A DNA stretch of 64,000 nucleotides from Blastocatellia bacterium (GCA_039648975.1 JBBWZK010000069.1:4428-68427); one strand, 5' to 3'; positions 39,662 to 60,769 are shown, numbered from the stretch's first letter. A program made the numbers and translations. Notes: generated by a model not told the origin, from the letters alone.

Positions 39662-39679
39662 TCAATATCAGAAGAAAAT

Positions 39680-39769
39680 GGCCACAGAGGCGCCGCAGAC
39701 ACAGAGAATACCTTGGAAAAACCTGCTTTCCAAAAATCTTTCTTCATCTTTCTCTGTGTCTCTGTGGCC
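39680..39769. repeat. Inverted repeat hairpin (CACAGAG-type units) between the tsaD stop and the ribD start
   Basis: GGCCACAGAG..ACACAGAGAA (39680-39708, with a 9-nt bulge) pairs with TTCTCTGTGTCTCTGTGGCC (39750-39769). Confidence 0.7.
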
Positions 39770-39799
39770 AATCCGCTGTCCTCATTCGTGTAATTCAAT

Positions 39800-40873
39800 T
39801 TATAGACGATAGCGCGCTTTCGCGGGCACCTCGTAGCCTTCCAGCTTGAGGTTATCGAGCCTGATCGATGTTGAAGCCGTGAATGCAAGTCCATGATCAT
39901 CGCCGCGCAAGAGCTTCGGATAACCTGCCGCCGCGATCATCGCCGCATTGTCGGTCGTCAGAATCGGGCTCGGATAATAGACTGGCGCGTTGAAGTCTTC
40001 GGCCTTGAGACTCCGGCGCAGGGCGCTGTTGCAGGCGACGCCGCCGGCCAGAATGATCGTGCGCGGATGATGACGGCGCACCGCCGCACGGACGCGAGCG
40101 AGCAGCGAACGAATCACTTTATCCTGAAAGCTGGTCACCAGATTGATGATCGTTTCAGTCGGCATTTCGCCCGCTTGCAAAGGCTCGATGCGATGCTCGC
40201 GCACATAACGCAGCACGGCGGTCTTCAGGCCGCTGAAGCTGAAATCGAGATTCGGCGAATCCATGCGCGGAATCGTGAAGACTAGATCAGCCGCCCGCGC
40301 ATCGCCTTGCGTAGCCAGCCGGTCAATCACCGGCCCGCCGGGATAGCCGAGCCCCAGCAGCTTCGCCACTTTGTCGTAAGCTTCGCCTGCCGCATCATCG
40401 CGCGTCCGCCCGATGATGGCGTACTGTCCTGCTTCGGGAATCAGGAAGAGCGTCGTGTGCCCGCCCGACACCACCAGCGCCAGCGCAGGGTATTGGACCG
40501 GCGGATGCTCGAAGACCACTGAATAGATGTGACCTTCGATGTGATTGACGCCGACAATCGGCTTGCGCGCGACGAAAGCCAGCGACTTCGCGTAGCTGAT
40601 GCCGACCAGCAACGAGCCGATCAGTCCCGGCCCCTGGGTCACGGCGATGCCGTCAATCTCCTGTAAGGTCACGCCGGCATCCGCCAGGGCTTGATTGACG
40701 ACCGGCGCGATGTGATTGAGGTGTTCGCGCGAAGCCAGTTCCGGCACGACGCCGCCGAACGGCGCGTGCGTTTTAATTTGCGAAGCGATGACATTCGATA
40801 AAACCTTGCGCCCGTCTTCGATGACGGCGGCGGCAGTTTCGTCGCACGAGCTTTCAATGCCAAGTGTGAGCAT
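39800..40873 (-). CDS. tsaD: tRNA N6-adenosine threonylcarbamoyltransferase
   Basis: [41 protein letters not shown].. is the Kae1/TsaD signature. Confidence 0.9.
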
Positions 40874-40924
40874 ACATGTTTATTCTACACGAGCGGCGCA
40901 TTGCATCGAAACGCGCTGTCAAGA

Positions 40925-41049
40925 GTGACAAGTGACAAGACATGGTGAATTTATAACGATGAATGAGACGCGTGATCCAGGGAGCGCGCGGCATTCAGCG
41001 CGCCTTTCTTTCGCCCGCCACTCCTTTCTTGTCACTTGTCACTTGTCAC
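40925..41049. repeat. Heptamer-array inverted repeat (GTGACAA units) in the tsaD/adh divergent region
   Basis: GTGACAAGTGACAAGA (40925-40940) pairs with TCTTGTCACTTGTCACTTGTCAC (41027-41049). Confidence 0.8.
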
Positions 41050-41071
41050 CTCAGTTATTAATCTGAAGACC

Positions 41072-42085
41072 ATGATGAAAGCTGCCGTCCTGCACGAATA
41101 CAAACAACCGCTGGCCATCGAAACCGTCGACACGCCGATGCTTGAGGCCGATGAAGTGCTCATCAAAGTCGAAGCCTGCGGCGTCTGCCATTCCGATCTG
41201 CATCTCGCCGAAGGCGACTGGCAACAGCTATTGCGAATCATCAAGAAGCCGCTCATACCGGGCCACGAAGTCGCCGGGCGCGTGGTGGCCAGAGGCGCGG
41301 CGGTGACGACGCTCGACATAGGCGACCGCGTCGGCGTCGCGTGGGTCTACTGGACTTGCGGCGAATGTGATCTGTGCCGCGAAGGCCAAGAGAATCTCTG
41401 CCGCAAGCAGATCATCACCGGCGCGATGGTCGATGGCGGCTTTGCCGAATTCATCCGTGCGAAAGCCTCGCACGCCCTGCGCGTTCCCGACCGGCTCACT
41501 TCCGAGGAGGCCGCGCCGCTCTTCTGTGCAGGCGTGACGGTCTATCGCGCCGTCACGCGCGCCAATCTCTCTCAGGGTCAGCGGCTGGCGGTCTTCGGCA
41601 TCGGCGGGCTCGGCCACCTCGCGGTGCAGATCGCCAGACACTTCGGCGCGCAAGTGATCGCCGTTGACATCGCTGAAGACAAGCTGGAGATTGCTCGATC
41701 ATTCGGCGCCGAGATGACTATCAACGCGGCGGCGGAAGATGCTGTGAAAGCTCTGCGCAAACTCGGCGGCGCGCATGCGGCGGTGGTGACATCGGGCGCG
41801 AAGGCAGCCTATGACGCGGCATTTTATGCCGTGCGACCGGGCGGCAGGCTGGTCGTCGTCGGCATGCCTGCCGAGCCGTTGAGCTTCCCGGCCATCATGA
41901 TGCGCGAGATGACCATCACCTCGGCGGCGACCGGCACGCGCGAAGACCTGCGCGCCGTCTTGCAGTTGGCGGCAGAAGGCAAGGTGCGTTGTTTGATCGA
42001 CACCGCGCCGCTTGAAGCGATCAACGACATTCTTGATGCGATGCGCGGCGGCAAAATCGCGGGCCGCGTGGTGCTGAAGTTTTAG
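41072..42085 (+). CDS. Zinc-dependent alcohol dehydrogenase
   Basis: CGVCHSDLHLAEGDW and the GIGGLGHLAVQ Rossmann motif are present. ATG ATG at 41072-41077; the track ORF starts at an upstream TTG inside a repeat. Confidence 0.85.
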   Translation: MMKAAVLHEYKQPLAIETVDTPMLEADEVLIKVEACGVCHSDLHLAEGDWQQLLRIIKKPLIPGHEVAGRVVARGAAVTTLDIGDRVGVAWVYWTCGECDLCREGQENLCRKQIITGAMVDGGFAEFIRAKASHALRVPDRLTSEEAAPLFCAGVTVYRAVTRANLSQGQRLAVFGIGGLGHLAVQIARHFGAQVIAVDIAEDKLEIARSFGAEMTINAAAEDAVKALRKLGGAHAAVVTSGAKAAYDAAFYAVRPGGRLVVVGMPAEPLSFPAIMMREMTITSAATGTREDLRAVLQLAAEGKVRCLIDTAPLEAINDILDAMRGGKIAGRVVLKF

Positions 42086-42920
42086 GCAGGCCGCTGTGGT
42101 TGCGCCCCTGTTTTAACGACTGGCGCGGCTTCCATTCAATTTTGGAGGTAAAGCTGTAGGGTTTAAGACAAGGATAAAACGGGTTGCGAGAGGCTAATTG
42201 CGGCCAGCCAGGTTCAAGACGAACGCATACTATGCAATTCGGCTTTTCAGCAAAGAAAGCGTTCACCCTCCAAGACAAGTCGGTATAGTTTACATAAAGC
42301 GGCTCAACCGGCGGAGCGTCATTCCCATGGCAAGGATCAGGCAACGGGCCTTCTTCTCGGTTTAGCCCCGCCGGGTCGATGAAATCCAGCGGCGCATTCA
42401 GCACATAGGCATAGCGATTCCAACTCTGCGGCGACTCCGCTCCGGCGCTCGCCTTAAACGGATCGGCGGATTGGAAGCGTCCCGTACCAGATGAATAATT
42501 CCGGTTCGCCGCATAGTCAGTGCCGCTCTGGCTGTCGCGCTCATAGCTGGTGAAGTGCTGCTTCTGCTGCGTGCCGCTCTCAGCGAAGTCTTCGCCAAAT
42601 GGCAGGTGCGCCTGCTGGCCAACCGCTGTGCCGCTTGTGTTCAAGGTCAACCGCACACTCAGCTGGTCGTTCAGCAGGTAAGTCGTCGTGCCGCCAACGA
42701 TCCTGGCAATCTTCCAGTTGCCGGCGTAGACATAATTCACCAACACTGCGCCCGTGCTGCCGTTATGTTCAGCTAATCCCTGTCCGCCTTTCCAGAGGTA
42801 ATGCGTCACCGTGCTGCCGACGGTCGTTTTGTACCGCCGGTTCTGATGGTCATAGCTGTAGCTCGCCGTCGCTCCACCATCCACGCTCACCAGCCGGTTC
42901 TCCGAGTCATAGGCCCAAAC
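42021..42920 (-). pseudogene. Orphan Rhs core-end plus truncated toxin tip (no own start)
   Basis: It is homologous to the main Rhs C-terminal core (..YSYDHQNRRYKTT..SVRLTLNTSG..HLPFGEDFAESGTQQKQHFTSYERDSQSGTDYA..DPAGL). Homology begins right after the stop of the upstream gene. The tail reads into the 3' end of adh. Confidence 0.7.
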
Positions 42921-42925
42921 GGCTC

Positions 42926-43486
42926 TTACTGCTTGCAGAGTCGAATGGCCTGTGCAAATGCTTGGCCGACTCTTTCAGCGATCTTTTTACTTCTGCTGTT
43001 AAGAACAATGGTCACCTGGTCAAGGGCATAAATTTCCGGCTCACCGTTAAGCTTTACCAAGTCCGCCGTTACTGCATTTTTCTTATCCACAGTAAAAATG
43101 TCTATTGTGAAGCCTGTCATACCTGGAGAAAGTTTGCTGATTTTTATGCTGACAGGGTCTAAATCTCTTAGCTGAAAACCTAATTTTTCAGTACCGCTCT
43201 GGGGCTTCCTATCCGGAAAGGAACGCTTTTGGAAGTCATTTTGTATCTCCATCCGACAGCCATCAACAACTGCGATTTTCGAGGTGTAGATGATTTGAGC
43301 ATCATTGCGTTTATGGGTGATAATGGCATCACGGTCAAGTTGATCTTTAATCCAATTCAGTGTGTCCTGAAGTGAAGAGTTGCTGTCTTGAACACCAACG
43401 GGCTCTGGGTATGCCGCAAGATCCGTTGCAAGCAGCAACATAAGCATGAAAAACAGGACAGCAGCGCGAAGCACGTTTTTTTTCAT
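42926..43486 (-). CDS. Secreted/lipoprotein-like protein (immunity candidate for the HExxH cassette)
   Basis: The ATG at 43484-43486 follows AAAGGAG. The signal peptide is MKKNVLRAAVLFFMLMLLLA. It lies directly downstream of the orphan toxin fragment. Confidence 0.45.
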   Translation of the reverse strand: MKKNVLRAAVLFFMLMLLLATDLAAYPEPVGVQDSNSSLQDTLNWIKDQLDRDAIITHKRNDAQIIYTSKIAVVDGCRMEIQNDFQKRSFPDRKPQSGTEKLGFQLRDLDPVSIKISKLSPGMTGFTIDIFTVDKKNAVTADLVKLNGEPEIYALDQVTIVLNSRSKKIAERVGQAFAQAIRLCKQ

Positions 43487-43699
43487 GGGAGGCGCTCCTT
43501 TCATTTCAAGGCTATTCAGAACCGTATGCCACGATCACCATTGTCCATCCATCCTTGGCCTTGCGCTGAATTCTATAACAGAGTAGCGGAACACTTCCTG
43601 GTTGAACATCGCACGCACACGCTGTGATGGAACTGACCCATTGCCGGATCAACCAGGCAAATTTCATCTTGCTGCTTCCGCACACCTACCGAATCGGAT

Positions 43700-44194
43700 T
43701 CACTTTTTCTTATTTCGCGGGCAGCCGTGATCCAAAAAATCATCGATGGCATCTGAAGCTGAGAATTCGGGGCCGTCATACCCAAACAAAGCTTTCGCAA
43801 TTGCCCCATGGTTGCCCGTACCATAGAAGAGATGCAAAACCTCATGGGTAATGATTCTATTACGATGGTACTGACCAAATATTCCTTCCGAATAGAATCT
43901 TCTACCCACAGCGATTGTATTTTCCTGAATCCAGCTTCCCGCCCAAACATAGCTAAGCCTGTTGAAGATGTTGGCGTCCGCAGAATGACTGTACAAATCA
44001 ACCTCGAAGAATACATGGTTATTAGCGATGGCTTTGTTATGTTCGTCTTTCTCGAAATCAATATAATAAGCGTTTCTAGCCCTGTTCAAAAACGACCAGA
44101 GGATTCCCTTATTGAAAAAGTATGTCGTACAACCAGGCTTGTCAGCGAAGAAAGGATAAACTCTATAAGTCGGTATAGTTTACATAAAGCGGCT
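43700..44194 (-). pseudogene. Orphan toxin C-terminal cassette with an HExxH metallopeptidase motif, frame-disrupted at its 5' junction
   Basis: An ITHEVLH motif is present. The 5' end shares ..PLYVNYTDL and ..FFADKPGC.. with the other orphan, but a stop and frame change intervene (44165-44190). There is no ATG. Confidence 0.5.
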
Positions 44195-44256
44195 TATCCG
44201 AATGAATAATCCACATCTAGCCGCAAAGAGAAACGTCGTTGTTAATTCAAATCCGC

Positions 44257-45045
44257 TCAGTTGGACTTCCAAATCTGCCTTATGGCTTCTTTAACATAAC
44301 GAAGGAGTTCCTCATCCCTATTTTTGTTTAGTAATTCTTCCAGAATTGGCAGGGCGCGAGTGTCGCCCATAGCTCCCAAAATCATAGCGGCCCTTGCCTG
44401 GATTTTGACCGTTTCTGCCCTGATGAAAAATTCCGAAGGGGTATGATCAAAACCAAATTTGGTAGCAGCGGCTCTTGATTCTGCCGTCTCAATTGCTTCA
44501 ATGATTCTTGGAAATATCACAGGGCCTATCCTTACTAAAGCTTTCATTGCCGGGTTCATTCTCTCTTCCGAACCTATGCTATCTTCCGTTTCCATCATCT
44601 TCATAAGAACAGGGATCGCTGCCTCAGCGCGCAAGCGTCCGAGCAATTCACATATATCTGATTTTAACCTCCAATTCACTACTAATTCTCCTAATTGATT
44701 TACAAGCCTTACCGCTTCTCTTCGACTCTCTTTTGGAAGCGAGCGTAAACGTTCGTCAAGCTCAGATGCCTCCATTTCTTTGCCACGTAAATACCTTGCT
44801 GTGGGATTTGTGATAATATCTTGAAGAAGATCTATGAGAGGTTGCACAGAGGCTTGTCCTAGTTGAATGAGTTTCTCTTTTGCCGCTTGTCTTTCTTCGT
44901 CATTTGCTGACCATAAGTCATCGATTGCGCCGGCAACCTCACGATCTTGTGATACTCTCTGTTGGGGGTAGCTGGTTAATCGCCCCCCCGAGCCGAAAGC
45001 TAGAGTGAGTATCCCGCTGATCGCCAAAAATCTCTTCAAGCGCAT
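44257..45045 (-). CDS. HEAT-repeat protein with a signal peptide (immunity candidate of the main Rhs toxin)
   Basis: PBS-lyase/HEAT-like repeats are present (..AAIPVLMKMMETED.., ..RALPILEELLNKNRDEE..). It sits 64 nt downstream of the Rhs stop. Confidence 0.5.
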   Translation of the reverse strand: MRLKRFLAISGILTLAFGSGGRLTSYPQQRVSQDREVAGAIDDLWSANDEERQAAKEKLIQLGQASVQPLIDLLQDIITNPTARYLRGKEMEASELDERLRSLPKESRREAVRLVNQLGELVVNWRLKSDICELLGRLRAEAAIPVLMKMMETEDSIGSEERMNPAMKALVRIGPVIFPRIIEAIETAESRAAATKFGFDHTPSEFFIRAETVKIQARAAMILGAMGDTRALPILEELLNKNRDEELLRYVKEAIRQIWKSN

Positions 45046-45109
45046 TTATTCACCTCCGTACTATGTGACGTAAGCTGCACCGACACCATCAATACTGCGA
45101 GGGCTGTTA

Positions 45110-47209
45110 TTAAATGCTTTTTATACGGGCGCTCCAAGCTGGATTGCCGTCCGTAATGGTCAGCGTCAAAAACAAGATTGCTGCGCAACTCCGCCTTGGG
45201 TCTTGCGTGTTTTTCACGTTGAAGGTGAAGGTCCAATTAATATGCCCGCTGACGACTTTTTGACCATTACCTTTAGGATCGCTGGCTATCTTTCGAATAT
45301 CAGGAGTGTCAACAACGAAAAGCCAGCCGCGTTTCGTCCAATCTTCATTGCTTTCGCCGGGACCATCCGGTTCAGGTCCTAAATTTTTACTAACATCATA
45401 TGGATTCCCATTATAGAGAATAGTTACATTACCCATTCTCAGTACAATTCTTGATGCCACCCAATGGGCCGGGTCTTTATCATCTTTCGGCAACTGAACG
45501 CGGAGTTCATCAACATATCCCCAGAAGCCATCTTCGACAGGATTTTCCACCGGACCTATCGTAGTAGCAGAAGCAAAGTGCCCCCCTATGTGATAATCGC
45601 CGTTCAAGTGGAGGCCACGAGCTCCCAACGTCACATGGCATCTTTTTGGCGGCGGCGGATCAGGCTCATAGTGACAAGGCTCTGGTAGCGTTGGTTCTTC
45701 GACATTCAACCCCGACGGGTCAACGAAATCTACTGGCGACCCCATCACATACGTATACCGATTCCAACTCTGCGGCACCGACGCGTCCGCGCTTGGCTCG
45801 AATGGGTCCGCTGACTGGAAGCGACCTACAGCGGCGGCATAATTGCGATTCCCCGCATAGTCAGTACCGCTCTGACTGTCGCGCTCATAGCTGGTGAAAT
45901 GCTGCTTCTGTTGCGTGCCACTCTCCGCAAAGTCCTCACCATACGGTAAATGTGCCTGCCGTCCGACCACCGCCGCACCGCTGGTATTCAACGTCAAGCG
46001 CACGCTCAGCCGGTCGCTCAACAAGTAATTCGTCGTGCCGCTGGCGATCTTGGCGATGGGCCGGCTGCCGGCGTAGAGGTAATTCACCAGCATTGTTCCC
46101 GTGCCGCCATTGTGCTCAGCCAGTACCTTCCCCGCTTGCCAAATGTAATGCGTGAGGCTGCTGCCCGCCGTGGTTTTGTACCGCTGGTTCTGATGGTTAT
46201 AGGCATAGTTCGCCGTCGTGCCTGAGTCGACGGCCACCACACGGTTCTCACTGTCATAGGTGTAGCTATGCACTCCGTCGTTGGTCACATTGCCCGCCAC
46301 ATCATAGGTGTAATTCACGCCGTTGACGCTCTGGAGGCGATTGGTCGTCATCCCACCGCTCTGCTGCAAGACGAGGCTTTGAATCTGGTGGAAGCCTTTG
46401 GCGTCGTCGTAAGCTGCCGTACGGTTGCCCCAACGGTCATAGCTGTATGCCCGGTCGGCGCTCTGCCCATTCGAGGTCTGTAAGGATATTTTAAGCCTCG
46501 CTAGATTGTCGTAATAGTAGGTCGCCGATTCCGTCGTGCCGTTGATCGTTCCCAATACGCCGGTCAATTGCCCCGCATTGCCGGCTGTCGTGTTTACTCC
46601 CATCTGGCCGGCTTGCGCGTTGTAGCTATAGGTTAAGTCCATGCGATTGGTGTACGGCGACGTGGTGCCCGCCTTCTGTGAGGTCATCTGCATGCGCGCC
46701 GCGTCGTAGCCGAACTGCTCGGTCACGCCGTTGCCATACGTGTTACTGGACACTTGCCCGGCGATGTTATGACTATGACCGCTCACATAATCCGTGCCGG
46801 CGCTGCCGCTCGGATAATTGGCCAGACTACTCACGATGCCCGTGCTGTCGTGCCCAATATAGAGCAGTTGGCCTGACGGATAGGTCATCTGCGTCAACTG
46901 ATTGGCCTCGTTGTAGCTGTTGTAGCTGGTCGTGTAGTTGCGCGTGCCAATCGTCTGCACGCTACTGGCGATTCGGAAGCTGCTATCAAAAGTGTAACGC
47001 TCCTGATAATCACTGCCGACGTTGACCCGCAACAGTTCCCCCATCGCCGTCGTGCTGTAGCCGGTGCCGGAATCTTGGTCATAGATGTAAGTCACGGTCG
47101 GCGCGGTGGTCACTCCACTCACTGTGTTGTAACTCACCTGCGTCAGGCGATTAAGCGTGTCATGCGTATAGGTCGTCACCACGCCACGGATGTCCGTGCG
47201 CGTCGCCAC
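45110..47209 (-). pseudogene. Rhs/YD-repeat protein, C-terminal fragment (core end, DPxGL, unknown toxin domain)
   Basis: YD repeats, ..RFQSADPFEPS..NRYTYVMGSPVDFVDPSGL, then about 200 aa of unique C-terminus. The open frame continues upstream of 47209 without a start. Confidence 0.7.
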
Positions 47210-47988: not shown

Positions 47989-48120
47989 GGCCCAGAACGT
48001 GGTCTGTGAGGCTATCTGCGTCTGCTCGTTGCAGCAGGCTAATTGCTCTTTGACCGTGTTGCCAAAGGCATCTATCTTGCGCAGCCGTGTGTAAGAGAAA
48101 TTGTTCGCCAGGTCATACCA

Positions 48121-50592: not shown

Positions 50593-51148
50593 GGCGACTA
50601 TGGGCTATGCATCTCCCCGCAGAAGCCGACGGCTTCAGCGATAAACTACGGATAGGAAAGCTGATTGCTACCGCAAGACTACTGTGGGCTTTTTGTTCGT
50701 TTGACCAAAATCGATTGAAATGTTCAACGACTTGAATTGTAATCTTGCTCACAGGTAGCAGAGGCAGCCGCGATAATATTCAATTCACATTTTAATGTCA
50801 AGGATTATTTTATTGGCAGTCTGCCTCGCCATGGCCTGAACGGCGAGGCGAGTTGACTTTGTAGGCAGAGTGCAAAGAGAGGTTAGGTTTTCGGCAAACC
50901 CTGAAGGTTCGCCTGATGAAAACTATTGACTCTCGCGGCATCCTCTCTTACCATCCCACCACATAGAGTCCCCCAATATGTTTGCTTGCCCCAGTTAAGT
51001 AGGAGTGTTTGGTTCTGCCCCTTTGGTGTTAGCGCGACCCCGCTGAACGCAGCAAGCCGAGCGTATTCGAGATGAGGGAACGGCCTCGCCTCACACGTCG
51101 CCCCAACCGCCGAATGCTCGCTGCCTGCGCACCCCGGAGCAAGCAATC

Positions 51149-54100: not shown

Positions 54101-54511
54101 TGGATCGTTCCGGTTGATATGGCGACGCTGAAGGCGCAGGTGCGGGTTGCCGTTTATGACGGCGCAGGCAATTCGGCAACTGCAGTCAGCGGTGGCAACT
54201 TCGACGTCTGGCCGCTGCCGATCATTACCAACGTCGTTTATAACGAGGGCACGCCGGCTAACCTGGAAATCTCAGGCCGCAATTTCCGCAATGGCGAAAC
54301 CGAGATCTGGGTCAACGGCAAGGTGCTCGCCAAAATCTTCTTCCAGGACAAGTTCTACGAGGGCCAGGGCATCAGCCGCAAGGTGTTCAGCAAAGACAAG
54401 AAGCTCAACAAGAAAGTGCCGGTCAAATCGGAAGTCGCCGTCGTCGTGAAGTTTCCGAAGACCGGCCAAGCATCGCCGGCCTTCACTTACAAGCGGCCAA
54501 GAAACCCTTGA
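51149..54511 (+). CDS. Secreted subtilisin-like (S8) serine protease with C-terminal Ig-like domains
   Basis: The catalytic triad contexts are IADTGID, GHGTINAAIAGG and SGTSHAAPAVSGAAALL. It has a signal peptide and a G9 linker. Confidence 0.9.
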   Translation: MARFKLHLTVLSFFILALIFAGRQPAYTDSSAQKSPHAVFDATYRSRTATHKVIIQADDPALGGSLLADGATVVEDYGSFVLMSVPDRAAETVSTQSLTGSAVRDDMNVLLLRAHSFDTTSVSDEEFSTSSLGELEPSDEQLYLVQMVGPVKKDWVRQLQDAAEIVSYIPNNAYLVRATPQGFARLREMKSGDHSFVQFAGSYKPEFRIAPEIAINSDTVINVTVQIANGKRVARDIEEVAAVSQALIEPPHTALGYTNLRLRVSARQLADIARKSNVVWIEPFATPELLDEKQGMIVAGLYNGNTLNPHGYLTWLASKGITSPPDFAIDIADTGIDKGSLDPAEIHKDFLGAGGLSRVVYARYVAGGGLEGTVNDSQGHGTINAAIAGGYNDKTGAPYVDSDGYSLGLGIHPFAKLGVSKIFGPDYLSPSFTALIDQMYGSGARISNNSWGTYNNNYTVDSQTYDALVRDAREGDEGNQELTVIFSSGNKGAGGHLTSPGNAKNTIMVGASENLRAGIDGCQVDSSGADDINSIIDFSSSGPTTDGRFKPEIIAPGTHIQGARSQDRGFTAGGVCGPGNYPTDQTTYTWSSGTSHAAPAVSGAAALLRQFFQQSVGHPPSPAMVKAYLTNAATYMTGFRAGGTLPSADQGFGLLNIGRALDETPRLMVDQDQVLANTGQVYTLTGHIVDPSKPLRITLAWTDAPGSPAASPVVNNLDLQVDVGGKTYLGNHFSGAFSLEGGSADALNNLEAVYAPTGTAGEFTVRIVAANIAGDGIPGNGDSTDQDFALVVYNAIGSDGSGGGGGGGGGSLDSPPTVNLKYPLGGEHITVGSFLRVLWDASDDKGLQSQRIAFSADGFTYNRIGAVDGTTRQFDWRVPAIPTPVARIRVTAQDGVNLPVSSTSPGPFQIVSGPPDNVPPTVLVTAPNKNTTVGGGQALTIQWRETDNVGVVQRVIELSTDNGNTWTRILSISAPSSGENQKYDWIVPVDMATLKAQVRVAVYDGAGNSATAVSGGNFDVWPLPIITNVVYNEGTPANLEISGRNFRNGETEIWVNGKVLAKIFFQDKFYEGQGISRKVFSKDKKLNKKVPVKSEVAVVVKFPKTGQASPAFTYKRPRNP

Positions 54512-54535
54512 GGCTCGCGCCCAGCGGCAAAAATC

Positions 54536-54568
54536 AAAGCGCGGATGACGATCAGCCATCCGCGCTTT
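54536..54568. terminator. Bidirectional hairpin between convergent genes
   Basis: AAAGCGCGGATG (54536-54547) / CATCCGCGCTTT (54557-54568), a 12-bp stem. Confidence 0.55.
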
Positions 54569-54592
54569 CACTTATGAAGAAGACTACAAAAC

Positions 54593-55081
54593 TTAAACGC
54601 TAATCCGGCAGCCGCAGAGCAGTTCAATCTCAACTTCGGATTGATGCGTCACCGTATGGTCACGGCGTGCGTGCAGGACTTCAAGCGTATAGGGGTTGAA
54701 CACGATCACATCTTTGACGCCCTGCCGGAGATAAAATTCGCGCCCGATTTCCAGATCTTTCGCTTCAAACCCTTTGCTGATGACTTCAATCACCGCTTCC
54801 GGCACAAGGGAAATCGCCTCCTCTTCTTCTTCCGGCTCGCGACAAAAGATCGAAATATCCGGGCGCTTCAATGAACCATCCGGGAAACTGATGTAAACAT
54901 CGGCAGCGTGGATCCAGTCACACCGTGTCTGCGATAAGGCAGGCGACTTGCGAATCCCAGAGCGTATGCGGTCAACGGCTTTCTGGTGTTTATAGACGGG
55001 GCTTGGTTCCCAGATCGGGATACCGCCGACAATCTCAAGCCTGACACCCATCTCATCTGCCCGCAAGAATCTTGAATCCAT
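54593..55081 (-). CDS. Uma2-family (DUF820) endonuclease
   Basis: ..GIPIWEPSPVYKHQ..PDISIFC..PEAVIEVISKGFEAKDLEIGREFYLRQGVKDVIVFNP.. is the typical Uma2 pattern. Confidence 0.7.
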   Translation of the reverse strand: MDSRFLRADEMGVRLEIVGGIPIWEPSPVYKHQKAVDRIRSGIRKSPALSQTRCDWIHAADVYISFPDGSLKRPDISIFCREPEEEEEAISLVPEAVIEVISKGFEAKDLEIGREFYLRQGVKDVIVFNPYTLEVLHARRDHTVTHQSEVEIELLCGCRISV

Positions 55082-55102
55082 TGCCGCTCCGTGAAATGTA
55101 AT

Positions 55103-56317
55103 CTAAGTTGTTTTCGCTTTCAATCCTTTGCGCGCGCCTTCGTTGGCGACTTCGGCCTGTTCGATGGCGCGGCGCAAGGCGTCGCTTTCGCGCTCGTCAT
55201 TGGTCGCAGGCGTCAAGGCCCGCAAGGTCTGCAACTGATGGTCTGTCCCTTCGCGCAAAATGTCCAGCGCTTTCGCAAGCGCCTTGCTCTTCGGATTGTG
55301 TTCGTAAGCGTCTTCGAGCTTGGCGATGCATTCCTCGATGGCGCGGGCATAGTGGCGCAGCAGATTGGCGCGATCCAGCTTCGGCAACTCGCCCCATTCC
55401 TTCTTCTCTTCTTCAGTCTTCTTCTGCGCTTTCACTTCGGTTGGCGCAGGCACAGGGTTGAGGGCCGCAAGCCTGCGGTCGGCGATCCTCATGAAGACCT
55501 TGATGCGGTCGTCAGGCGATTGCGCCTTGCGGACGTGGTCGTCCTCTTCTTCGGTCAGGTAATCGCCGGGAATCTGCCGAACCCATCGGCGCAGGCTCGC
55601 CGCGCGCAGTCCATCACGAATTGGTAATGAATATCGCCAGATCACTTGATACAGGATTGACTCAACGCGCCAGGATTCGAGCGCCAGCGGAGAGGCCGGC
55701 GGCAGCAGATTGTTGCGGTTCTCGGTCTGCGGCGGCTTCTCGGCGTCAGGGTCTTTCAAGACCTCGCCGCTGGCAATGGCGATGTTGAGCATCTGCACGC
55801 GAAAGCGCTTGGCGCGTTTGATGGCGGCTTCGGCAAACTGCACGCGCTCGGCGGGAAACAGGCGCTCGACGGATTCCAGCGTCCGCAGTTCTTTGTACAG
55901 CGATTGCTCGACCTTTTTCGCGGCGCTGCGCTTGCCATCATCGAGCGCCTCGGCGGCCTTCACGCATTCAGCCATCGCCTTTTGAAAGGCGTCAAGCTCA
56001 CGTTCAGCGCGCAGCGTATCATTGCTTTTGATCGCAGTGAGCGCCGCTTCAACGCGCCCTTCGGCGATCTTCATGTAAGCTTCAACTGCCTTCTTGGGAT
56101 TGTGCGCCTCGGCAAGCAAGCCCTTCTCCTGCGCCGTCAGCAGATCGGCAAGCGGCGTCGGGTCAACCGGCAATGGCGGCAGGTCGCCTTGAGCCTTTGC
56201 AGCCGGCGCGTACAAAATAACCAGGCCGACAAGCAGCGCAGCGGCGACGCTTGGCAGCCAGCCCCGCAAGCGAGCCGCCGCCGTCGCGCCTTTGTCAGAA
56301 TCATCGCTGTCCTTCAT
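55103..56317 (-). CDS. Secreted helical protein, unknown function
   Basis: The ATG at 56315-56317 lies 2 nt after the upstream stop. A signal-anchor (VAAALLVGLVILYAPAAKA) is present and the sequence is charged and helical. Confidence 0.45.
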   Translation of the reverse strand: MKDSDDSDKGATAAARLRGWLPSVAAALLVGLVILYAPAAKAQGDLPPLPVDPTPLADLLTAQEKGLLAEAHNPKKAVEAYMKIAEGRVEAALTAIKSNDTLRAERELDAFQKAMAECVKAAEALDDGKRSAAKKVEQSLYKELRTLESVERLFPAERVQFAEAAIKRAKRFRVQMLNIAIASGEVLKDPDAEKPPQTENRNNLLPPASPLALESWRVESILYQVIWRYSLPIRDGLRAASLRRWVRQIPGDYLTEEEDDHVRKAQSPDDRIKVFMRIADRRLAALNPVPAPTEVKAQKKTEEEKKEWGELPKLDRANLLRHYARAIEECIAKLEDAYEHNPKSKALAKALDILREGTDHQLQTLRALTPATNDERESDALRRAIEQAEVANEGARKGLKAKTT

Positions 56318-56319
56318 GC

Positions 56320-57768
56320 TCACTTCCCTTTTGCCGGCGACTTGCACTTGCCTTCCTTAGCGAGCCGGGCAAGCAAACTCAGGCGCAGGTTAGCGCTATC
56401 AAGCTCCAGCTTATTCTTGGTCGCGTCGGCTCGCCGCGTGAATTCTTGATAAGCGCGTTGCGCCTGCGGACCATCGCTCAATTTATCGAAGGCAATACCG
56501 AGAAAGTAATAGCTCGCCGCTACCTCTGGCTTCTGGCGAATCAGCCAGATGAACTCGACTGCCGCCTGCGGAAACTGCTTCAACTCAAAGAGCGCCGTCG
56601 CCAGGCTGGCGTGCGCCGCGTAGTTATTGGCGTCGCGCTGCAACGCTTCGGCAAGCACCGCGAGCGCCGGCTCGAATTGCCGCGAGCGCACGAGTGCCGC
56701 GCCCAGTTGAACGCGCGCGTGGTTGTCTTTTGCATCAATTTCCAGCGCCCGCTGATAATAAACGGCAGCTTCCCCGGGCTGCTGTTTGAAAAGCAAGTCG
56801 CCCGCCGTCACCAGCAGCCGTGCATCGTTGGGCCGCAGTTTGATGAGGCCGGCAATCTCTTTCATGGCCTCCGCGGTCTGGCCGCCTTCGGCCATCAGGC
56901 GGGCGATTTCCGTGCGCAGCGCATAATCGTTCGGGCGCTCGATGAGCAGCGTACGGTAGATTTGCAGCGCCGTCTGCGGCTGCCCTGTGCGCGTGTAGAG
57001 CGTCGCCAGCCGCAGCGCCGTCTCCTGCGACGGCTGTGTGCGATAAGCGATAGAGTAATCGGCAATCGCTTTGGCCGTATCGCCGTGCGCTTCGTAGAGT
57101 CGCGCACGTCCCTCGCGCGCCGTCGCGATGCTGGCATCCATCTCGATGGCTTTCGAGTAATCGGCAAACGCCTCCTCGGCTTTGCCTGTGCGTTCTTCGG
57201 CAATGCCGAGCAGCGCATAGATGAGCGCCGTCGCTTCGCCCTGTTCGATTGCGGCGCGCAGGTGCTCAAGGGCTTTCTGCGGCTCGTTGGTTTTGAGCAG
57301 CGCGCTGGCATAGAGCAGACGCACGCCGGTGATCTTCGGATCGAGTTCGAGGGCGCGGGCAAGCGCCGCCTTGGCGTCGGGCGTTGCATCGCGATCCAGC
57401 AGCACCTGGCCGAGGGCGCGATAAGCGCGGGCGAAGTTCGGCTCCATGGCGATGACTTTTCTGAGATCGGCTTCGGCCTCTTTGTCGCGGGCCAGGGCAA
57501 TCAGCGCCGTGGCGCGTTGATAGTACGGCTGGTAAAGCGACGGCGCGGCGTTGATGGCGTTGCTGTAATAGCGCACCGCCGCCGAATGATCGCCGCGCTG
57601 CTGGGCATTCTGCCCTTCTTCAAAAGCGGCGGCGGCCCGCTGATCTTCATTGTGACTATTGGTTTGCGCCCGACAGATCGGCGCGGCGACGACCAGTAAA
57701 GTAACGACGATTATAAAACCGGAAAGGCGCATACGGATGACAACCTCGCAAGCCATCATAGCACCCAC
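56320..57768 (-). CDS. TPR-repeat protein (secreted)
   Basis: About ten 34-aa TPR units (..A..Y..A..P....A...LG..). The probable start is MRLSGFIIVV at 57732. Confidence 0.75.
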   Translation of the reverse strand: MGAMMACEVVIRMRLSGFIIVVTLLVVAAPICRAQTNSHNEDQRAAAAFEEGQNAQQRGDHSAAVRYYSNAINAAPSLYQPYYQRATALIALARDKEAEADLRKVIAMEPNFARAYRALGQVLLDRDATPDAKAALARALELDPKITGVRLLYASALLKTNEPQKALEHLRAAIEQGEATALIYALLGIAEERTGKAEEAFADYSKAIEMDASIATAREGRARLYEAHGDTAKAIADYSIAYRTQPSQETALRLATLYTRTGQPQTALQIYRTLLIERPNDYALRTEIARLMAEGGQTAEAMKEIAGLIKLRPNDARLLVTAGDLLFKQQPGEAAVYYQRALEIDAKDNHARVQLGAALVRSRQFEPALAVLAEALQRDANNYAAHASLATALFELKQFPQAAVEFIWLIRQKPEVAASYYFLGIAFDKLSDGPQAQRAYQEFTRRADATKNKLELDSANLRLSLLARLAKEGKCKSPAKGK

Positions 57769-57830
57769 GCCATCGGCGCATCAACAGAACGACTTTGAGC
57801 CGAAGCGGGTAACGTTTACTGGCATCATCA

Positions 57831-57973
57831 GTCCATTAGGGACGAAATGTTTATAGCCACCATTGCCGATAATACTCCAAGCTCCGTTAGGAGCGTAATG
57901 TTGACATTTCGCCCCTACGAGGCTTGGCTTCTTTTCGACGCTCGCAACTATAAACATTTCGTCCCTACGGGAC
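57831..57973. repeat. MITE/REP-like nested palindromic element
   Basis: The 26-bp terminal inverted repeats are GTCCATTAGGGACGAAATGTTTATAG (57831-57856) and CTATAAACATTTCGTCCCTACGGGAC (57948-57973). Internal mini-hairpins GCTCC-GTTA-GGAGC and GCC-CCTACGA-GGC are present. Confidence 0.6.
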
Positions 57974-58069
57974 TGGCACAAAACTGAGCCACGGCGTCAC
58001 AACAACCCTTACAGACTTCAGACCTTGAGCGATCATCAGCACGGGCTAATCGTTCGTGCTGCTATACTC

Positions 58070-58660
58070 ATGGACATGAAAGCCGATGGATTTGTCACGG
58101 CAGGCGGCAAGAGTTCGCGCATGGGCCGCGATAAAGCCTGGCTCGAACTCGACGGCGCAACCATGATTGCGCGTGTCGTTGCAGCGCTCAGACCTGTGAC
58201 CGCGAGCGTGACGATCATCGCCAATCGCCCTGAATATGGACGACTCAATTTGCCTGTCGTCGCTGATACACACAACGGCATCGGCCCGCTTGAAGCCATC
58301 CGCACAGCCTTAGCCCATTCCCGACAGCCGCGCGTTGTGCTGGCCGGCTGCGACCTGCCTTTTGTCACGCCGCAATTGTTTACTTACCTGCTGTGTGTTG
58401 ATGGCAACGCACAGGCGGTTGTGCCTCTGGATGAAAGCGGGCGATTAGAGCCACTGTGCGCCATCTATTCGACCGCTGCGCTTGACGCTGTGACCGAGTT
58501 GATCGCCAATGGCGAGCGCAAGGTGAGCCGCTTGTTCGAGCGCATCCCGACGCGCTTTGTGGCGTTCAGCGAGCTTCATCATCTGGCCGGGGCAAGGCGG
58601 TTTTTTGAAAACATCAATTCGCCGCAAGATTATCAGCGGATTATTGCCAGCTTAAAATAA
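58070..58660 (+). CDS. mobA: Molybdenum cofactor guanylyltransferase
   Basis: GFVTAGGKSSRMGRDKAWLELDGATMI is present. ATG at 58070; the track ORF starts at TTG 58025. Confidence 0.8.
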   Translation: MDMKADGFVTAGGKSSRMGRDKAWLELDGATMIARVVAALRPVTASVTIIANRPEYGRLNLPVVADTHNGIGPLEAIRTALAHSRQPRVVLAGCDLPFVTPQLFTYLLCVDGNAQAVVPLDESGRLEPLCAIYSTAALDAVTELIANGERKVSRLFERIPTRFVAFSELHHLAGARRFFENINSPQDYQRIIASLK

Positions 58661-58904
58661 TCTGATTGGGTGGAAAGGCCCGAAAGGAAAGACAAATTTC
58701 AAATTAATGAAGAAAAGGCTTGCGTTCCGCACGAGACGTTACATATACTTGCGGCTCTTGGGTATCCCCTCAGATCTAACTAGTTGTCATGATGGTCGCT
58801 GTCATGACTGTTAATGTGGCGCGCGGCTTGAAATCTGCTCCCCAGCAGGCAGCCCCTATAGGTGAGATTCCCATACATTATCCCTTAAGGGTAGAGGCTG
58901 AAAA

Positions 58905-59195
58905 ATGACTCTATTTTGTAAGCTAAGTAGAAAACATTACTGGTGCACACCGCATCGCTCGGAAGATCATCGGTTAGTGCAAGTCTGTTATGAATGCGGT
59001 GCCGAGCGTCCGGCCCGCGAGCTGCACACCGAAAAATTGCCCGAGGGTGTTCATCGCACACTGGCGACCGCGACGAGGAATCTCACCGGTGTTGTCGCCA
59101 GACCTGTTGGACTGGAAAGGCCAGAGAGCAGAAGAAGCGATCAACGCCTGGCCCTGGGTCAAGCCACTTTGAGCCGGCTGACGCTGGTGAAGTAA
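58905..59195 (+). CDS. Small Cys-containing (zinc-ribbon-like) protein, unknown function
   Basis: C..x7..C ... CYEC spacing is seen. GAGG lies 8 nt upstream of the ATG. Confidence 0.35.
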   Translation: MTLFCKLSRKHYWCTPHRSEDHRLVQVCYECGAERPARELHTEKLPEGVHRTLATATRNLTGVVARPVGLERPESRRSDQRLALGQATLSRLTLVK

Positions 59196-59330
59196 ATGAT
59201 GCATGCAGAATGATGAATGATGAACTAAAGAGGAATAGGAAGCGTCGGCGCGTTGCGCCGGATTATTTATAAACCATCCCACGTCCGTTTCCGCCGCACA
59301 TTCATCATTCATCACTCATCATTCATCATT
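59195..59330. repeat. Heptamer-array inverted repeat (AATGATG units) at the 3' end of the response-regulator gene
   Basis: AATGATG units at 59195-59224 pair with TTCATCATTCATCACTCATCATTCATCATT (59301-59330). The right arm includes the last codons and the stop codon of the gene. Confidence 0.8.
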
Positions 59331-60659
59331 TCCTTTTGTCGGTTTCTTCAAGCCGAATTTTTCGAGGCGATATTGCAGCGTGCGGAACGACAGCCCCAGT
59401 AGTTTGGCGGCGCGCGTGATGTTCCAGCCGGTCTGCTCCATCGCCTGTGTGATCAAAGACTTCTCTACTTCATCGAACGAAATGCCTTCGGGCGGCAGCT
59501 TGAAAGTGAAAGCGCCCGCGCCGCTCGCTTCCTGGCGAATCTCCACAGGCAAATCTTCCACATCAATCGTATCGCCTTCACATAACAGGATGGCGCGCTC
59601 GATGGCCGATTCCACCTGCCGCACGTTGCCCGGCCACGCATAGTTCATCAGGAAGTTGCGCGCCGACGGCGTCAGGCCGCGAATCAAGCGATGCGCCGTG
59701 GCGCTGTGCTTGGCGATGAAGTGTTCGATCAATGGCGGAATATCCGTGCGCCGATTGCGCAGTGGCGGAATGGTAATCGGAATAATATTCAGACGGTAAT
59801 AGAGGTCTTCGCGGAAACGGCCATCTTTGACCATGGCTTCGAGATCGCGGTTGGTCGCCGCGATGACTCGCACATCGACGCGCAGAGGCCGCGAGCCGCC
59901 GACGCGCATGACCTCTTTTTCCTGTAGAGCGCGCAGCAGCTTGGCCTGCATGCTGATGTTCAAGTCGCCGATTTCATCGAGAAAGAGCGTGCCTTTGTCG
60001 GCGAGTTCAAACTGGCCCTTCTTCTGCGCGTGCGCGCCAGTGAACGAGCCTTTTTCGTGACCGAACAACTCGGATTCGATCAGGTTTTCGTTGATGGCGG
60101 CGCAGTTGACAGCTTGAAAGATTTCGCCGGCGCGCGGGCTGGCTTTGTGTATGGCGCGGGCGACGCGCTCTTTGCCGACGCCCGATTCGCCGCGCACCAA
60201 CACGGTCGAAGTCGAGCCTGCGACTTTCAAGATCATCTTCTTGACGCGCTCCATCTCTTCGCTTGCGCCGATGATTTCATCGTCAATGCTGTTCAAGCGA
60301 CTGAGCGCGCTTTCGACGACCTTCAACAACTGCTCGCGATCAATCGGCTTTTCGAGATAATCATAAGCGCCGCTGCGCAAGGCTTCTTTCACCGATTCGA
60401 CAGAGCCGTGCGCCGTCATCATCACGACGAGCCGCGACGGGTCGTCTCTGAGCAACTCGCTGAGCAGCGTCAGACCGTCCATGCCGGTCATCTTGTAATC
60501 GGTGAGCACGAGGTCGAAATCCTGCTCGCGCGCCAGCTTCAGCGCGTGTTCACCGCTCTGCCCGGTCGTCACCTGATACCCATCGTCTTCAAGGATGAGC
60601 GTGTAGATTTCTCGCTGGTTGCGTTCGTCATCGACGACCAGCACTTTATTTCTTGGCAT
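59319..60659 (-). CDS. Sigma-54-dependent response regulator (NtrC/AtoC family)
   Basis: It has a REC domain ([12 protein letters not shown]), an AAA+ domain ([23 protein letters not shown]) and a Fis-type HTH. The ATG at 60657-60659 follows AAGGGAGAA. Confidence 0.9.
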
Positions 60660-60676
60660 TCGCTGTTCTCCCTTAA

Positions 60677-60769
60677 CGTGATGCGTGATACGTGATGCGT
60701 GATTCATCGGGCATTGTGAGTTTGCATAAGGTGCAAACCTCCGGTCACGCATCACGCATCACGTATCAC
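60677..60769. repeat. Heptamer-array inverted repeat (CGTGATG units) filling the kinase-regulator intercistronic gap
   Basis: CGTGATG CGTGATA CGTGATG CGTGATT (60677-60704) pairs with TCACGCA TCACGCA TCACGTA TCAC (60745-60769). At least 18 bp are complementary. Confidence 0.8.

Follow-up and report, generated by a model that had tools for sequence, protein, structure and literature searches.

Heptamer-armed hairpins at gene junctions of a Blastocatellia bacterium: candidate small palindromic modules resembling rRNA intervening sequences

The DNA considered here is a window of 64,000 nucleotides from the genome of a soil acidobacterium (Acidobacteriota, Blastocatellia), represented by a 6.9-Mb MAG. 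Four inverted repeats with arms built from short tandem units lie at gene boundaries in the window, all of them present where a sequence-only reading had placed them, and none is assigned to a strand. Site 1 (39680-39769) separates the stop of tsaD (39800-40873, minus strand) from the start of a ribD-like gene (38663-39661, minus strand), which begins just left of the hairpin; its arms, at 39680-39708 (GGCCACAGAGG..CACAGAGAA) and 39750-39769 (TTCTCTGTGTCTCTGTGGCC), pair across an AT-rich loop. On the other side of tsaD, site 2 (40924-41049) occupies the divergent region between that gene and a plus-strand Zn-dependent alcohol dehydrogenase-like gene (41072-42085) that starts 23 nt past the 3' arm. 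The 5' arm of site 2 is (GTGACAA)x2.3 at 40924-40940 and the 3' arm (CTTGTCA)x3.1 at 41027-41049; positions 40924-40940 and 41027-41043 pair over 17 nt with 100% complementarity, 86 nt apart.

Site 3 (59190-59335) lies between convergent genes and consists of an AATGATG array (59190-59224), a conserved core (59225-59298) that contains ..GCCGGATTATTTATAAACCATCC..CGTTTCC.., and a CATTCAT array (59299-59335), with pairing arms at 59190-59224 and 59301-59335 that are 35 nt long, 86% complementary and 76 nt apart. The first unit adjoins the TAA stop (59193-59195) of a plus-strand ORF; the 3' arm provides the last codons and the stop (59319-59321, minus strand) of a Sigma54-dependent response regulator (59319-60659, minus strand). 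The regulator starts 17 nt from site 4 (60676-60769), which fills the junction with a sensor histidine kinase (60759-62261, minus strand), the last codons and TGA stop of which (60759-60761) are supplied by the site 4 3' arm. Here the 5' arm is (CGTGATG/CGTGATA)x3.9 at 60676-60704 and the 3' arm (TCACGCA)x3.6 at 60745-60769, and 60678-60702 pairs with 60745-60769 over 25 nt (92% complementary, 42 nt apart).

The sequence-only reading had described loops of about 40-90 nt, some with a further small hairpin, and units that share GTGA at three of the four sites. Loops measure 41-86 nt, an inner GC hairpin is found in the 86-nt loop of site 2 and in the loop of site 3, an inner TTTGCA/TGCAAA hairpin in the 42-nt loop of site 4, and GTGA is indeed common to three units. 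The description of the arms as 7-nt units holds for sites 2, 3 and 4 and fails at site 1, where TRF reports a period of 8 (TCTCTGTG / CACAGAGN), making it an octamer relative. Folded as RNA, the four sites reach -38.8 to -59.5 kcal/mol with z-scores of -4.6 to -7.9 (-38.8 kcal/mol and z -4.9 for site 1; -49.1 kcal/mol and z -7.9 for site 4), and none of 200 dinucleotide shuffles folds as well.

A genome-wide scan for inverted heptamer pairs and their positions relative to genes, which that reading had proposed, places the four sites in a genome-wide class; they are not isolated, locally evolved structures. TRF finds 1422 period-7 arrays in the whole genome as against 749 at period 8, and perfect runs number 899 at period 7, 275 at period 8, 116 at period 9 and 5 at period 10, an excess over neighbouring periods, far beyond chance, that matches the STRR and GGGAATC type of heptamer repeat. 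Arrays are paired in inverted orientation 425 times and in direct orientation 3 times, forming about 410 hairpin loci with a median loop of 45 nt and an arm length that peaks at 4-4.5 units (a stem of 28-31 bp). G exceeds C in the 5' arm of 422 of the 425 elements, and of 45 of 46 in congener samples, so that paired convergent arrays, a G-rich 5' arm and about four units are again features of the STRR and GGGAATC type. About 12 units make up most arrays, and identical units recur in congeners; the most abundant (GTGATGC, AATGATG, GTGACAA, GGATTTT and GGATTCA) have no G-tract of 3 or more, and a few families, GGGGCTA and GGGGCCA, carry G-runs.

The placement of the four sites at gene boundaries likewise extends to the class: 374 of 382 placeable loci (98%) are intergenic and 8 lie inside called genes, though the genome is 80% coding. 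Co-directional gaps hold 313 of the placeable loci, and hairpin density per kb of intergenic DNA is 0.45 in co-directional, 0.14 in convergent and 0.12 in divergent gaps. The 5' arm follows the upstream stop at a median of 1 nt (15 nt or less in 92%), with the qualification that the gene calls were home-made and each ORF was continued until a stop appeared, so that the figure for stops inside the arm is partly inflated. The 3' arm precedes the next start by a median of 15 nt, and the element fills a median of 86% of the gap. An intergenic position between co-oriented ORFs, near one stop and the next start, is a further trait of the STRR and GGGAATC type. Strong stems directly after stop codons could also be intrinsic (rho-independent) terminators acting in both directions at gene ends, which is highly improbable here: TTTT occurs within 10 nt past the 3' arm in just 17 of 313 cases, the hairpins are 3-fold rarer per kb in convergent than in co-directional gaps, a 28-bp stem around a loop of at least 45 nt is nothing like the geometry of a terminator, and many of the hairpins occur within what are clearly operons, the kinase-regulator pair for one.

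Among the closest precedents are other heptamer repeats. The GGGAATC arrays of Xanthomonas are transcribed and make up 70-75 "convergent" inverted pairs in gaps between aligned ORFs (Rehm et al. 2015, PMC4692102). The Xanthomonas GGGAATC and Nostoc GGGGAYT arrays resemble those described here in being intergenic 7-nt tandems found preferentially between aligned ORFs, with four units preferred and, in Xanthomonas, a G-rich 5' arm; sense-strand arrays lie no more than 50 bp from the stop, and antisense-strand arrays no more than 50 bp from the next ORF (PMC4692102). Each of those genomes has one unit, which was read as a G-quadruplex former (PMC4692102); by contrast, one architecture is common here to at least 12 unit families, most of which lack G-tracts, with family-specific loops and versions that bear a PF05635 gene. 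That the present arrays too are G-quadruplex-forming repeats is extremely doubtful, in spite of the G-rich 5' arm, the preference for four units seen by Rehm et al. (PMC4692102) and the G-runs of the GGGGCTA and GGGGCCA families, as the most abundant units have identical architecture and no G-tracts of 3 or more. The short tandemly repeated repetitive heptanucleotides (STRR) of Calothrix and Nostoc and the TAACTGA repeats of Beggiatoaceae also comprise several intergenic heptamer families per genome, have stop codons in all frames, are patchy across phyla and have no known function (PMC4679880). They have been described mainly as direct arrays, for instance 169 direct sets of TAACTGA versus one indirect set in 'Maribeggiatoa' (MacGregor 2015, PMC4679880), whereas inverted pairs are the rule here.

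All four sites belong to dispersed families with family-specific loops. Site 1 belongs to the octamer family CACAGAGN, with at least 5 octamer relatives that have similar loops (for instance C244:15468), and the GTGACAA family of site 2 has 37 elements in the genome. The arms and core of site 3 form a cluster of 38 copies, with many dispersed copies in the congener G001, and the loop of site 4 has two further copies in the genome, at C21:7691 and C354:7111. Loop similarity within an arm family is 5- to 600-fold above the between-family rate. Among AATGATG loops 81% have a family partner, as do 63% of those of GTGATGC; several GTGATGC cores recur, and for 219 of 334 loops no relative could be detected. 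Thus the statement that the hairpins are not a single dispersed REP or MITE sequence is right in that there is more than one family and wrong in that each site has dispersed relatives. Dispersed copies, terminal inverted repeats and common internal sequence are MITE-like. A classic MITE was considered and set aside: no target-site duplication is visible where clean insertions are compared with empty sites, and there is no cognate transposase-bearing parent.

The gene-bearing versions carry PF05635 only (23S-rRNA-IVS protein, Avd-like), not a transposase, and no catalytic protein linked to the elements was found. In six related genomes (G000-G005), 14 of 14 PF05635 genes lie within such hairpin loops, 4 in the host genome and 10 in G001-G005, bracketed by inverted arrays from the same unit families, and in every case the ORF is enclosed by a terminal stem of some 25-30 bp. 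The four host proteins score 60-133 bits against a cut-off of 33.8; they belong to cassettes elsewhere in the genome, and the four window sites are gene-less. Thirteen of the 14 point the same way as their upstream neighbour. Of 20 complete PF05635 loci from other genera, 11 pass a strict inverted-array test, and an array lies within 250 nt in 18 of 23. Protein identity drops with growing unit distance (Spearman -0.53, permutation p 0.0006), with one orthologous locus pair only, and matching arms are found on cassettes at non-orthologous loci. The host's four PF05635 genes compare with some 400 hairpins in 12 or more arm families, and hairpin density is equal in congeners with one or two PF05635 genes. 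No enzymatic activity is known for PF05635. No reverse transcriptase was found in four of the five genus genomes.

PF05635 genes are otherwise associated with intervening sequences (IVSs) of 23S rRNA. That of Coxiella is 444 nt long, with a 28-bp terminal stem, an S23p ORF in the loop and RNase III cleavage in mid-stem (Warrier et al. 2016, PMC4990558). Like the IVSs of Coxiella and Leptospira, the cassettes are inserts of about 430-490 nt that lack their own promoter and carry a PF05635 ORF within the loop of a terminal stem of roughly 28 bp (PMC4990558). Known IVSs are inserted in helix 25 or 45 of 23S rRNA and excised by RNase III (PMC4990558), whereas all cassettes and hairpins examined here lie between protein-coding genes; no 23S rRNA gene is assembled in the MAG. 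Unlike known IVSs, the stems here are tandem heptamers, and gene-less copies outnumber cassettes by about 100 to 1. The genome encodes RNase III (rnc). The REPIN-RAYT system (Bertels and Rainey 2011, PMC3116915) is similar in combining hundreds of short intergenic palindromes with one or a few repeat-flanked protein genes, family and protein co-varying; it differs in that the RAYT is a domesticated IS200/IS605 Y1 transposase, as against a four-helix bundle without known catalysis, and in that tandem-array stems replace the palindromes with a conserved GTAG-type motif. Identity with REPIN-RAYT was rejected, the Y1 genes of this genome not being flanked by heptamer arrays; its one clear RAYT (C5:5620-5964) is bordered by another REP, GGGACGAAATGTTTATAG.

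Comparison of orthologous junctions among congeners, also suggested by the sequence-only reading, reveals turnover in which the unit differs and both arms have changed together. The site 1 junction is empty in G001-G003 and holds a different palindrome in G004. Fillings differ between congeners at sites 2-4 and at both tested cassette sites. At site 2, GTGACAA arms or remnants persist in all four congeners (G001-G004) around quite different loops, of 7 nt in G003 and with a nested GTCAGAA hairpin in G001, G002 and G004. The site 3 element is orthologous in G001, G003 and G004 and is replaced by a GACGCGGC-type hairpin in G002. At site 4 the arms are GTGACAA in G001 and G003 and GTGATGA in G002; the junction is empty in G004, where the kinase stop lies 4 nt ahead of the regulator ATG. 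Among 36 mapped loci, about 15 were empty, about 6 had the same unit and about 15 a different unit.

Both arms also vary in concert within the genome: both arms carry a variant at 276 paired positions (267 complementary), compared with 35.6 expected and with 102 (93 complementary) in a control slid by 7, in line with the claim that units differ between sites while arms remain complementary. The mirrored variants, a unit number that differs between arms and between congeners, a one-base change made in both arms in situ at C199:9663 (GGTTTCT versus GGTTCCT), and single words resembling a unit at certain empty sites ('gatcttc', 'cttattac' and, following the stop in G001 and G004, TGACGCGGC) would suit an origin on the spot, by which slippage amplifies a local 7-mer and template switching makes and corrects the inverted arm, with no movement; a slippage proposal for 7-nt repeats by Mrazek is cited in PMC4679880. 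As a full account this is quite unlikely. Arm-plus-loop modules recur at dozens of unrelated loci, some 12 units shared with congeners dominate the arrays, the arms are polarized 422 to 1, non-orthologous loci hold PF05635 cassettes whose arms match, and insertions carry loop sequence that is missing from empty sites. Slippage alone, one of two mechanisms offered earlier, leaves the shared loops, the small common repertoire of units, the strict polarity and the PF05635 link unexplained. The accompanying idea of locally maintained complementarity fared poorly, as an arm mismatches its own partner at 6.0% of positions and the partner from another element of the same family at 7.0%.

The other mechanism offered was selection on structure. 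Host-selected RNA elements could punctuate operons as processing sites, as protection of mRNA ends or as translational uncouplers; any long stem would serve, and position would be kept while sequence turns over. Enrichment between co-directional genes, the tight fit from stop codon to ribosome-binding site, and transcription of repeats of this class in Xanthomonas (PMC4692102) agree with such a role, as do arms that are near-perfect while flanking genes have diverged by 14-20%. So does co-occupancy, which over 292 junctions has an odds ratio of 10.7 (p 1e-7), about 10-fold above chance, despite a unit that is shared at just 3 of 15 co-occupied junctions. On the other side, 37 of the 52 junctions occupied in either genome are filled in one only, and 14 of 31 relatives, among them several from the same family, yielded no GTGA-core arrays. 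Selection on sense RNA finds no echo in the mismatches, where no excess of G·U over A·C is seen in transcript orientation (183 G·U-type versus 207 A·C-type), and loop cores have no preferred orientation (sense to antisense 12:12 and 7:6); with the mirrored variants, these results speak for symmetry at the DNA level. A selfish-looking gene would moreover be unexpected cargo for a host regulatory signal. Taken together, a host-selected function seems unlikely as the explanation of the class, and the earlier interpretation is partly supported.

The hairpins are abundant, strictly polarized and placed at junctions, fall into arm-plus-loop families, are associated with PF05635, and have been gained, lost and replaced between congeners. 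On balance, and with slightly more confidence than doubt, we regard the four as copies of a genome-wide class of small palindromic, IVS-like mobile modules of the STRR/GGGAATC heptamer-repeat type. Each module consists of two inverted arrays of about four 7-nt (at times 8-nt) units around a family-specific loop, placed after one gene's stop codon and ahead of the next gene's ribosome-binding site, and the hairpins would be the gene-less counterparts of identically armed cassettes with a gene for the PF05635 four-helix bundle in the loop. The architecture is that of the RNase III-excised 23S rRNA IVS, here in mRNA junctions. The modules are probably mobile or copied at the DNA level, and their insertion into, or survival at, junctions already occupied by a hairpin may be favoured, in which case old arms would decay outside new ones. 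Conserved occupancy could instead reflect host function. Slippage presumably alters unit number, and the two arms may be kept alike at the DNA level, for example through template switching within the hairpin, not by selection on sense RNA. Because known IVS stems are cut by RNase III, that enzyme would, by analogy, cleave the long perfect stem in read-through transcripts. Such cleavage could make an insert tolerable within operons and free the PF05635 mRNA from promoterless cassettes, and the PF05635 protein may be the trans-acting partner of the modules.

The four inverted pairs reported by the sequence-only reading were all recovered with Tandem Repeats Finder and a repeat finder, and each lies at a gene boundary. 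Site 1 (39680-39769) separates the tsaD stop from the ribD start, site 2 (40924-41049) lies between the divergent tsaD and alcohol-dehydrogenase genes, site 3 (59190-59335) between convergent genes, and site 4 (60676-60769) between a histidine kinase and its sigma54 response regulator. The description of the arms as tandem heptamers holds for sites 2, 3 and 4 but not for site 1, an octamer relative whose arms pair and whose unit, CACAGAGN, has a period of 8; such octamers form a small family that includes site 1, with similar, AT-rich loops. At site 2, arms of GTGACAA x2.3 and CTTGTCA x3.1 share 17 fully complementary nt at a spacing of 86 nt; at site 3, AATGATG x4.3 and CATTCAT x4.6 pair over 35 nt (86% complementary, spacing 76 nt); and at site 4, CGTGATG x3.9 and TCACGCA x3.6 pair over 25 nt (92%, spacing 42 nt). 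RNA folds of the four sites have z-scores of -4.6 to -7.9, and none of 200 dinucleotide shuffles was as stable. The 3' arms also contribute coding sequence, with the last codons and stop codon of the regulator coming from site 3 and those of the kinase from site 4.

These sites are not special places but part of a population of about 410 loci, found by scanning the genome for inverted tandem-heptamer pairs. The assembly that holds the window comprises 6.9 Mb on 486 contigs with 57.7% G+C, and its TsaD places it in the Acidobacteriota, class Blastocatellia, where the nearest named relative is 'Ca. Onstottus arcticum' (79%). Perfect runs of period 7 number 899, against 275 of period 8 and 5 of period 10, and Tandem Repeats Finder reports 1422 period-7 arrays in all. 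About a dozen units dominate (GTGATGC/GTGGTGC, AATGATG, GTGACAA, GGATTTT/AGATTTT, GAGGCTA/GGGGCTA, GGATTCA, GGAGGCA and a few others), and besides the heptamers there is a large octamer family, GACGCGGC. Adjacent arrays are paired in inverted orientation in 425 cases and directly in only 3, with a median loop of 45 nt. At a density of about 6 loci per 100 kb, the window carries an average share.

The association with gene boundaries that was noticed at four sites extends to the whole genome. Against gene calls made by a codon-usage caller written for this genome (5017 genes, 80.5% coding), 374 of 382 placeable loci lie outside genes and only 8 within them. The intergenic loci fall into 313 co-directional, 25 convergent and 36 divergent gaps, or 0.45, 0.14 and 0.12 loci per kb of intergenic DNA, respectively. 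Within co-directional gaps the placement is tight: the 5' arm begins a median of 1 nt after the upstream stop (at most 15 nt in 92%) and contains that stop codon in 49%, the 3' arm ends a median of 15 nt before the next start, and the element takes up a median of 86% of the gap. Arm length in these gaps peaks at 4-4.5 units, or 28-31 nt. These elements are not intrinsic terminators, a T-run following the stem in only 17 of 313, and the G-quadruplex reading also fails a direct test.

The arms have a polarity as well, with G exceeding C in the 5' arm of 422 of 425 elements in this genome and 45 of 46 in two congeners. Because both strands of an inverted repeat read X...rc(X), this arm order is a real property of the elements. 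The same 'convergent' orientation was seen in Xanthomonas by Rehm et al. (PMC4692102). Stop codons explain the polarity in part at most, since arms that block every reading frame are found on the 5' side in 201 of 425 elements and on the 3' side in 96, which is a tendency.

The loops are not random filler. Among loops of at least 25 nt, 115 of 334 cluster by BLAST, and each cluster keeps to one arm family. Similarity within a family exceeds the between-family rate by a factor of 5 to 600, and a family partner was found for 81% of AATGATG and 63% of GTGATGC loops. Site 3, arms and core together, is one of 38 clustered copies, and the loop of site 4 recurs at C21:7691 and C354:7111 (contig:position). 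Thus each site falls in a dispersed repeat family, which runs counter to the earlier statement that the hairpins are not a single dispersed REP or MITE sequence, with the qualification that the families are many and not one. Loop cores show both orientations with respect to the neighboring genes (12:12 and 7:6).

Within single elements, arm pairing across the genome's hairpins is 93.5%. Paired positions that vary on both arms number 276, of which 267 are complementary, where independence predicts 35.6 and a control slid by 7 nt gives 102 (93 complementary); variant units are mirrored, so that each element has arms that are true inverted copies of one another. Only this test gives a signal of local maintenance, and the overall effect is small, with mismatches of 6.0% against an arm's own partner and 7.0% against the partner in another element of the same family, which argues against strong local compensation. 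Selection on RNA structure, one of the two causes first proposed, finds no support in the arms: among the 313 co-directional hairpins, oriented by transcript, 183 G·U-type and 207 A·C-type mismatches were counted (p 0.24), so G·U is not in excess, and the loop cores likewise lack an orientation bias. Arm variation does not look like selection on sense RNA. The other proposed cause, slippage, taken here as de novo slippage combined with template switching, fits the mirrored variants, but it accounts for neither the shared loops nor the strict polarity, nor for gene-bearing versions of the hairpins described below.

Comparison with four same-genus genomes, whose flanking genes are 78-87% identical, shows that units, loops and presence itself vary. 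Site 2 retains GTGACAA arms or remnants in 5 of 5 genomes, but what they enclose differs: 7 nt in congener G003, 86 unrelated nt in this genome, and a nested GTCAGAA hairpin in the other three. Site 3 is common to four genomes and is replaced by a GACGCGGC-type hairpin in the fifth. The arms of site 4 are GTGATGC here, GTGACAA in two congeners and GTGATGA in one, and the site is absent from G004, where only 4 nt separate the kinase stop from the start of the regulator. Three congeners have nothing at site 1, and an unrelated palindrome occupies the point in the fourth. This ribD/tsaD junction has a 20-nt empty gap in the three, the CACAGAG hairpin in this genome, and in G004 (locus L086, ortholog of window 39662-39799) a 27-bp non-heptamer palindrome, AAAGTGGCGCAAGCTGTTAGCTTGCGC..GCGCAAGCTAACAGCTTGCGCCACTTT; the junction therefore attracts unrelated hairpin elements.

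Extending the comparison to 400 kb from each of two congeners, 36 loci could be mapped, with about 15 empty, about 6 carrying the same unit and about 15 a different one. Across 292 orthologous junctions the co-occupancy odds ratio is 10.7 (p 1e-7), and the unit is common to both genomes at only 3 of 15 co-occupied junctions. Turnover between species is quick, yet the elements return to the same junctions. No target-site duplication was seen at clean insertions in these comparisons. Some unoccupied sites carry short unit-like sequences: a minimal two-unit palindrome (GTGGCCA followed by CTGACCAC) at the 'empty' G003 junction orthologous to C101:14626-14854, the single unit-like word 'cttattac' at site 4 of G004, and TGACGCGGC after the stop at the C329 site in G001 and G004. 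Such palindromes and words may have been left behind by lost hairpins or may serve as seeds from which new ones arise. The class-wide distribution is patchy: each genome of the genus has 54-381 matches to GTGA-core arrays, whereas 14 of 31 relatives have none. Conserved occupancy would fit a host function, in which the hairpins punctuate operons; against this stand the missing RNA signature and the many junctions occupied in one genome only.

Some of the elements carry a gene. The genome encodes four proteins of PF05635, the 23S-rRNA-IVS family of Avd-like four-helix bundles, all above the Pfam cut-off, and each gene lies in the loop of inverted arrays: TAGGGGC on C124, GACGCGGC on C329, AATGATG on C319 and GTGGTGC on C216. 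The PF05635 genes of the four congeners and a sister-genus genome are likewise bracketed in 10 of 10 cases, by units (GTGACAA, GGATTTT, GAGGCTA, GGAGGCA, GGATTCA and others) that are those of gene-less hairpin families. In genera farther away within the class, a strict bracketing test succeeds at 11 of 20 complete loci, and an array lies within 250 nt of the gene at 18 of 23 loci. Protein identity follows the arm unit, being 79% for identical units, 69% for one difference and at most 33% for more (Spearman -0.53, permutation p 0.0006), in a comparison in which only one cassette pair is at an orthologous locus. At two cassette sites checked, congeners carry gene-less hairpins of other families, and a GTGACAAG remnant lies outside newer arms. 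Gene-less loops are unlikely to be remnants of PF05635 genes, as further fragments of such genes were sought in this genome and none was detected.

All four PF05635 ORFs, and those of the congeners, were rejected by the codon-usage caller, which was trained on this genome; they therefore use codons in a way that is unusual for the host, as mobile or newly acquired genes would. One congener ORF (G003:C6:84600-84902) has an in-frame TGA and may be a pseudogene. The cassettes, at 430-490 nt, match in size and stem length the Coxiella IVS, a 444-nt element with a 28-bp stem, an S23p ORF in the loop, and an RNase III cut in mid-stem (PMC4990558). The gene is co-oriented with the gene directly upstream in 13 of 14 cases, which fits expression by read-through. 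An rnc gene is present, and by analogy with rRNA IVSs, RNase III would cut the stems in read-through transcripts; as for an IVS in 23S rRNA itself, that gene is not among the assembled sequences of this MAG.

Other repeats in the window belong to different classes. A triple palindrome of about 150 nt (57829-57975) consists of GTCCC(G)TTAGGGACGAAATGTTTATAG-type hairpins, a family distinct from the heptamers. Hairpins of this family lie on either side of a Y1 (IS200/IS605-like) transposase gene at C5:5620-5964 (region C5:5300-6250), and therefore form with it a REPIN-RAYT pair of the classical kind; 8 GCAGGAA-type heptamer hairpins also contain copies within their loops. With its one clear RAYT flanked by this different family, the genome offers no Y1 partner for the heptamer elements. 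A long degenerate array at 2640-3200, with periods of 15 and 27 (..GCCGCATCCGTATGCG..), would encode on the minus strand a putative His/Asp/Ser/Ala-rich pentapeptide repeat and looks like a coding repeat unrelated to the hairpins. Finally, a 36-nt inverted repeat at 34377-34473 (CTAGTGTTTCATCGCAATAGATTTGATGG.. / ..CATTGCGATGAAACACAAG; 81%, arm spacing 25 nt) has arms without tandem units.

Taken together, the elements behave like selfish palindromic modules. Such modules would be copied to new junctions and tolerated only where neither a gene nor a ribosome-binding site is disrupted; replacement from within would leave a junction occupied while its sequence changes, and a DNA-level process would keep the arms alike. 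Another idea is telomerase-like healing, in which a 7-nt template is copied reiteratively onto each of two DNA ends before these are joined. Polarity, mirrored unit order and 'filler' loops would all follow from it, but it is disfavored because a search for RVT_1 reverse transcriptases in G000 (this genome), G001, G002 and G003 found none, leaving four of the five genus genomes without one; hairpin density is equal in G003, without a reverse transcriptase, and G004, with one. A polymerase outside RVT_1 might still act in this way. For selfish modules, PF05635 is the obvious candidate partner, because no versions other than the IVS-type cassettes bear a gene, although the family has no known catalytic activity and its genes are far outnumbered by hairpins. 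A more speculative proposal, which we consider rather improbable, is that the PF05635 bundle is the trans-acting partner of a new autonomous/non-autonomous mobile system, each lineage recognizing its own heptamer unit and promoting copying or insertion at stop-codon/RBS junctions without a transposase or reverse transcriptase.

Heptanucleotide repeats have been known since 1990 as STRRs, and in many bacteria no other long simple repeat is as over-represented, an excess for which we know of no accepted cause. Published work covers STRR arrays, GGGAATC arrays with inverted pairs, TAACTGA arrays and the general over-representation (PMC4692102, PMC4679880), and, separately, PF05635-bearing IVSs (PMC4990558). 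The literature searched held no paper joining heptamer arrays with PF05635 IVSs, and no description of a multi-family hairpin design between protein genes. This genome presents the pattern cleanly, with about a dozen unit families in one strict hairpin design, placed exactly between stop codons and ribosome-binding sites. Annotation is affected too: many genes, the kinase and regulator of the window among them, take their final codons and stop from an arm. The elements also extend ORF predictions and take up about 86% of the gaps in which they lie. The findings provide a concrete candidate partner protein, PF05635, and a concrete prediction of RNA processing by RNase III, both testable by ordinary methods, and if the proposed mobile system were real, it would supply the long-sought reason why heptamers are over-represented in many bacterial phyla.
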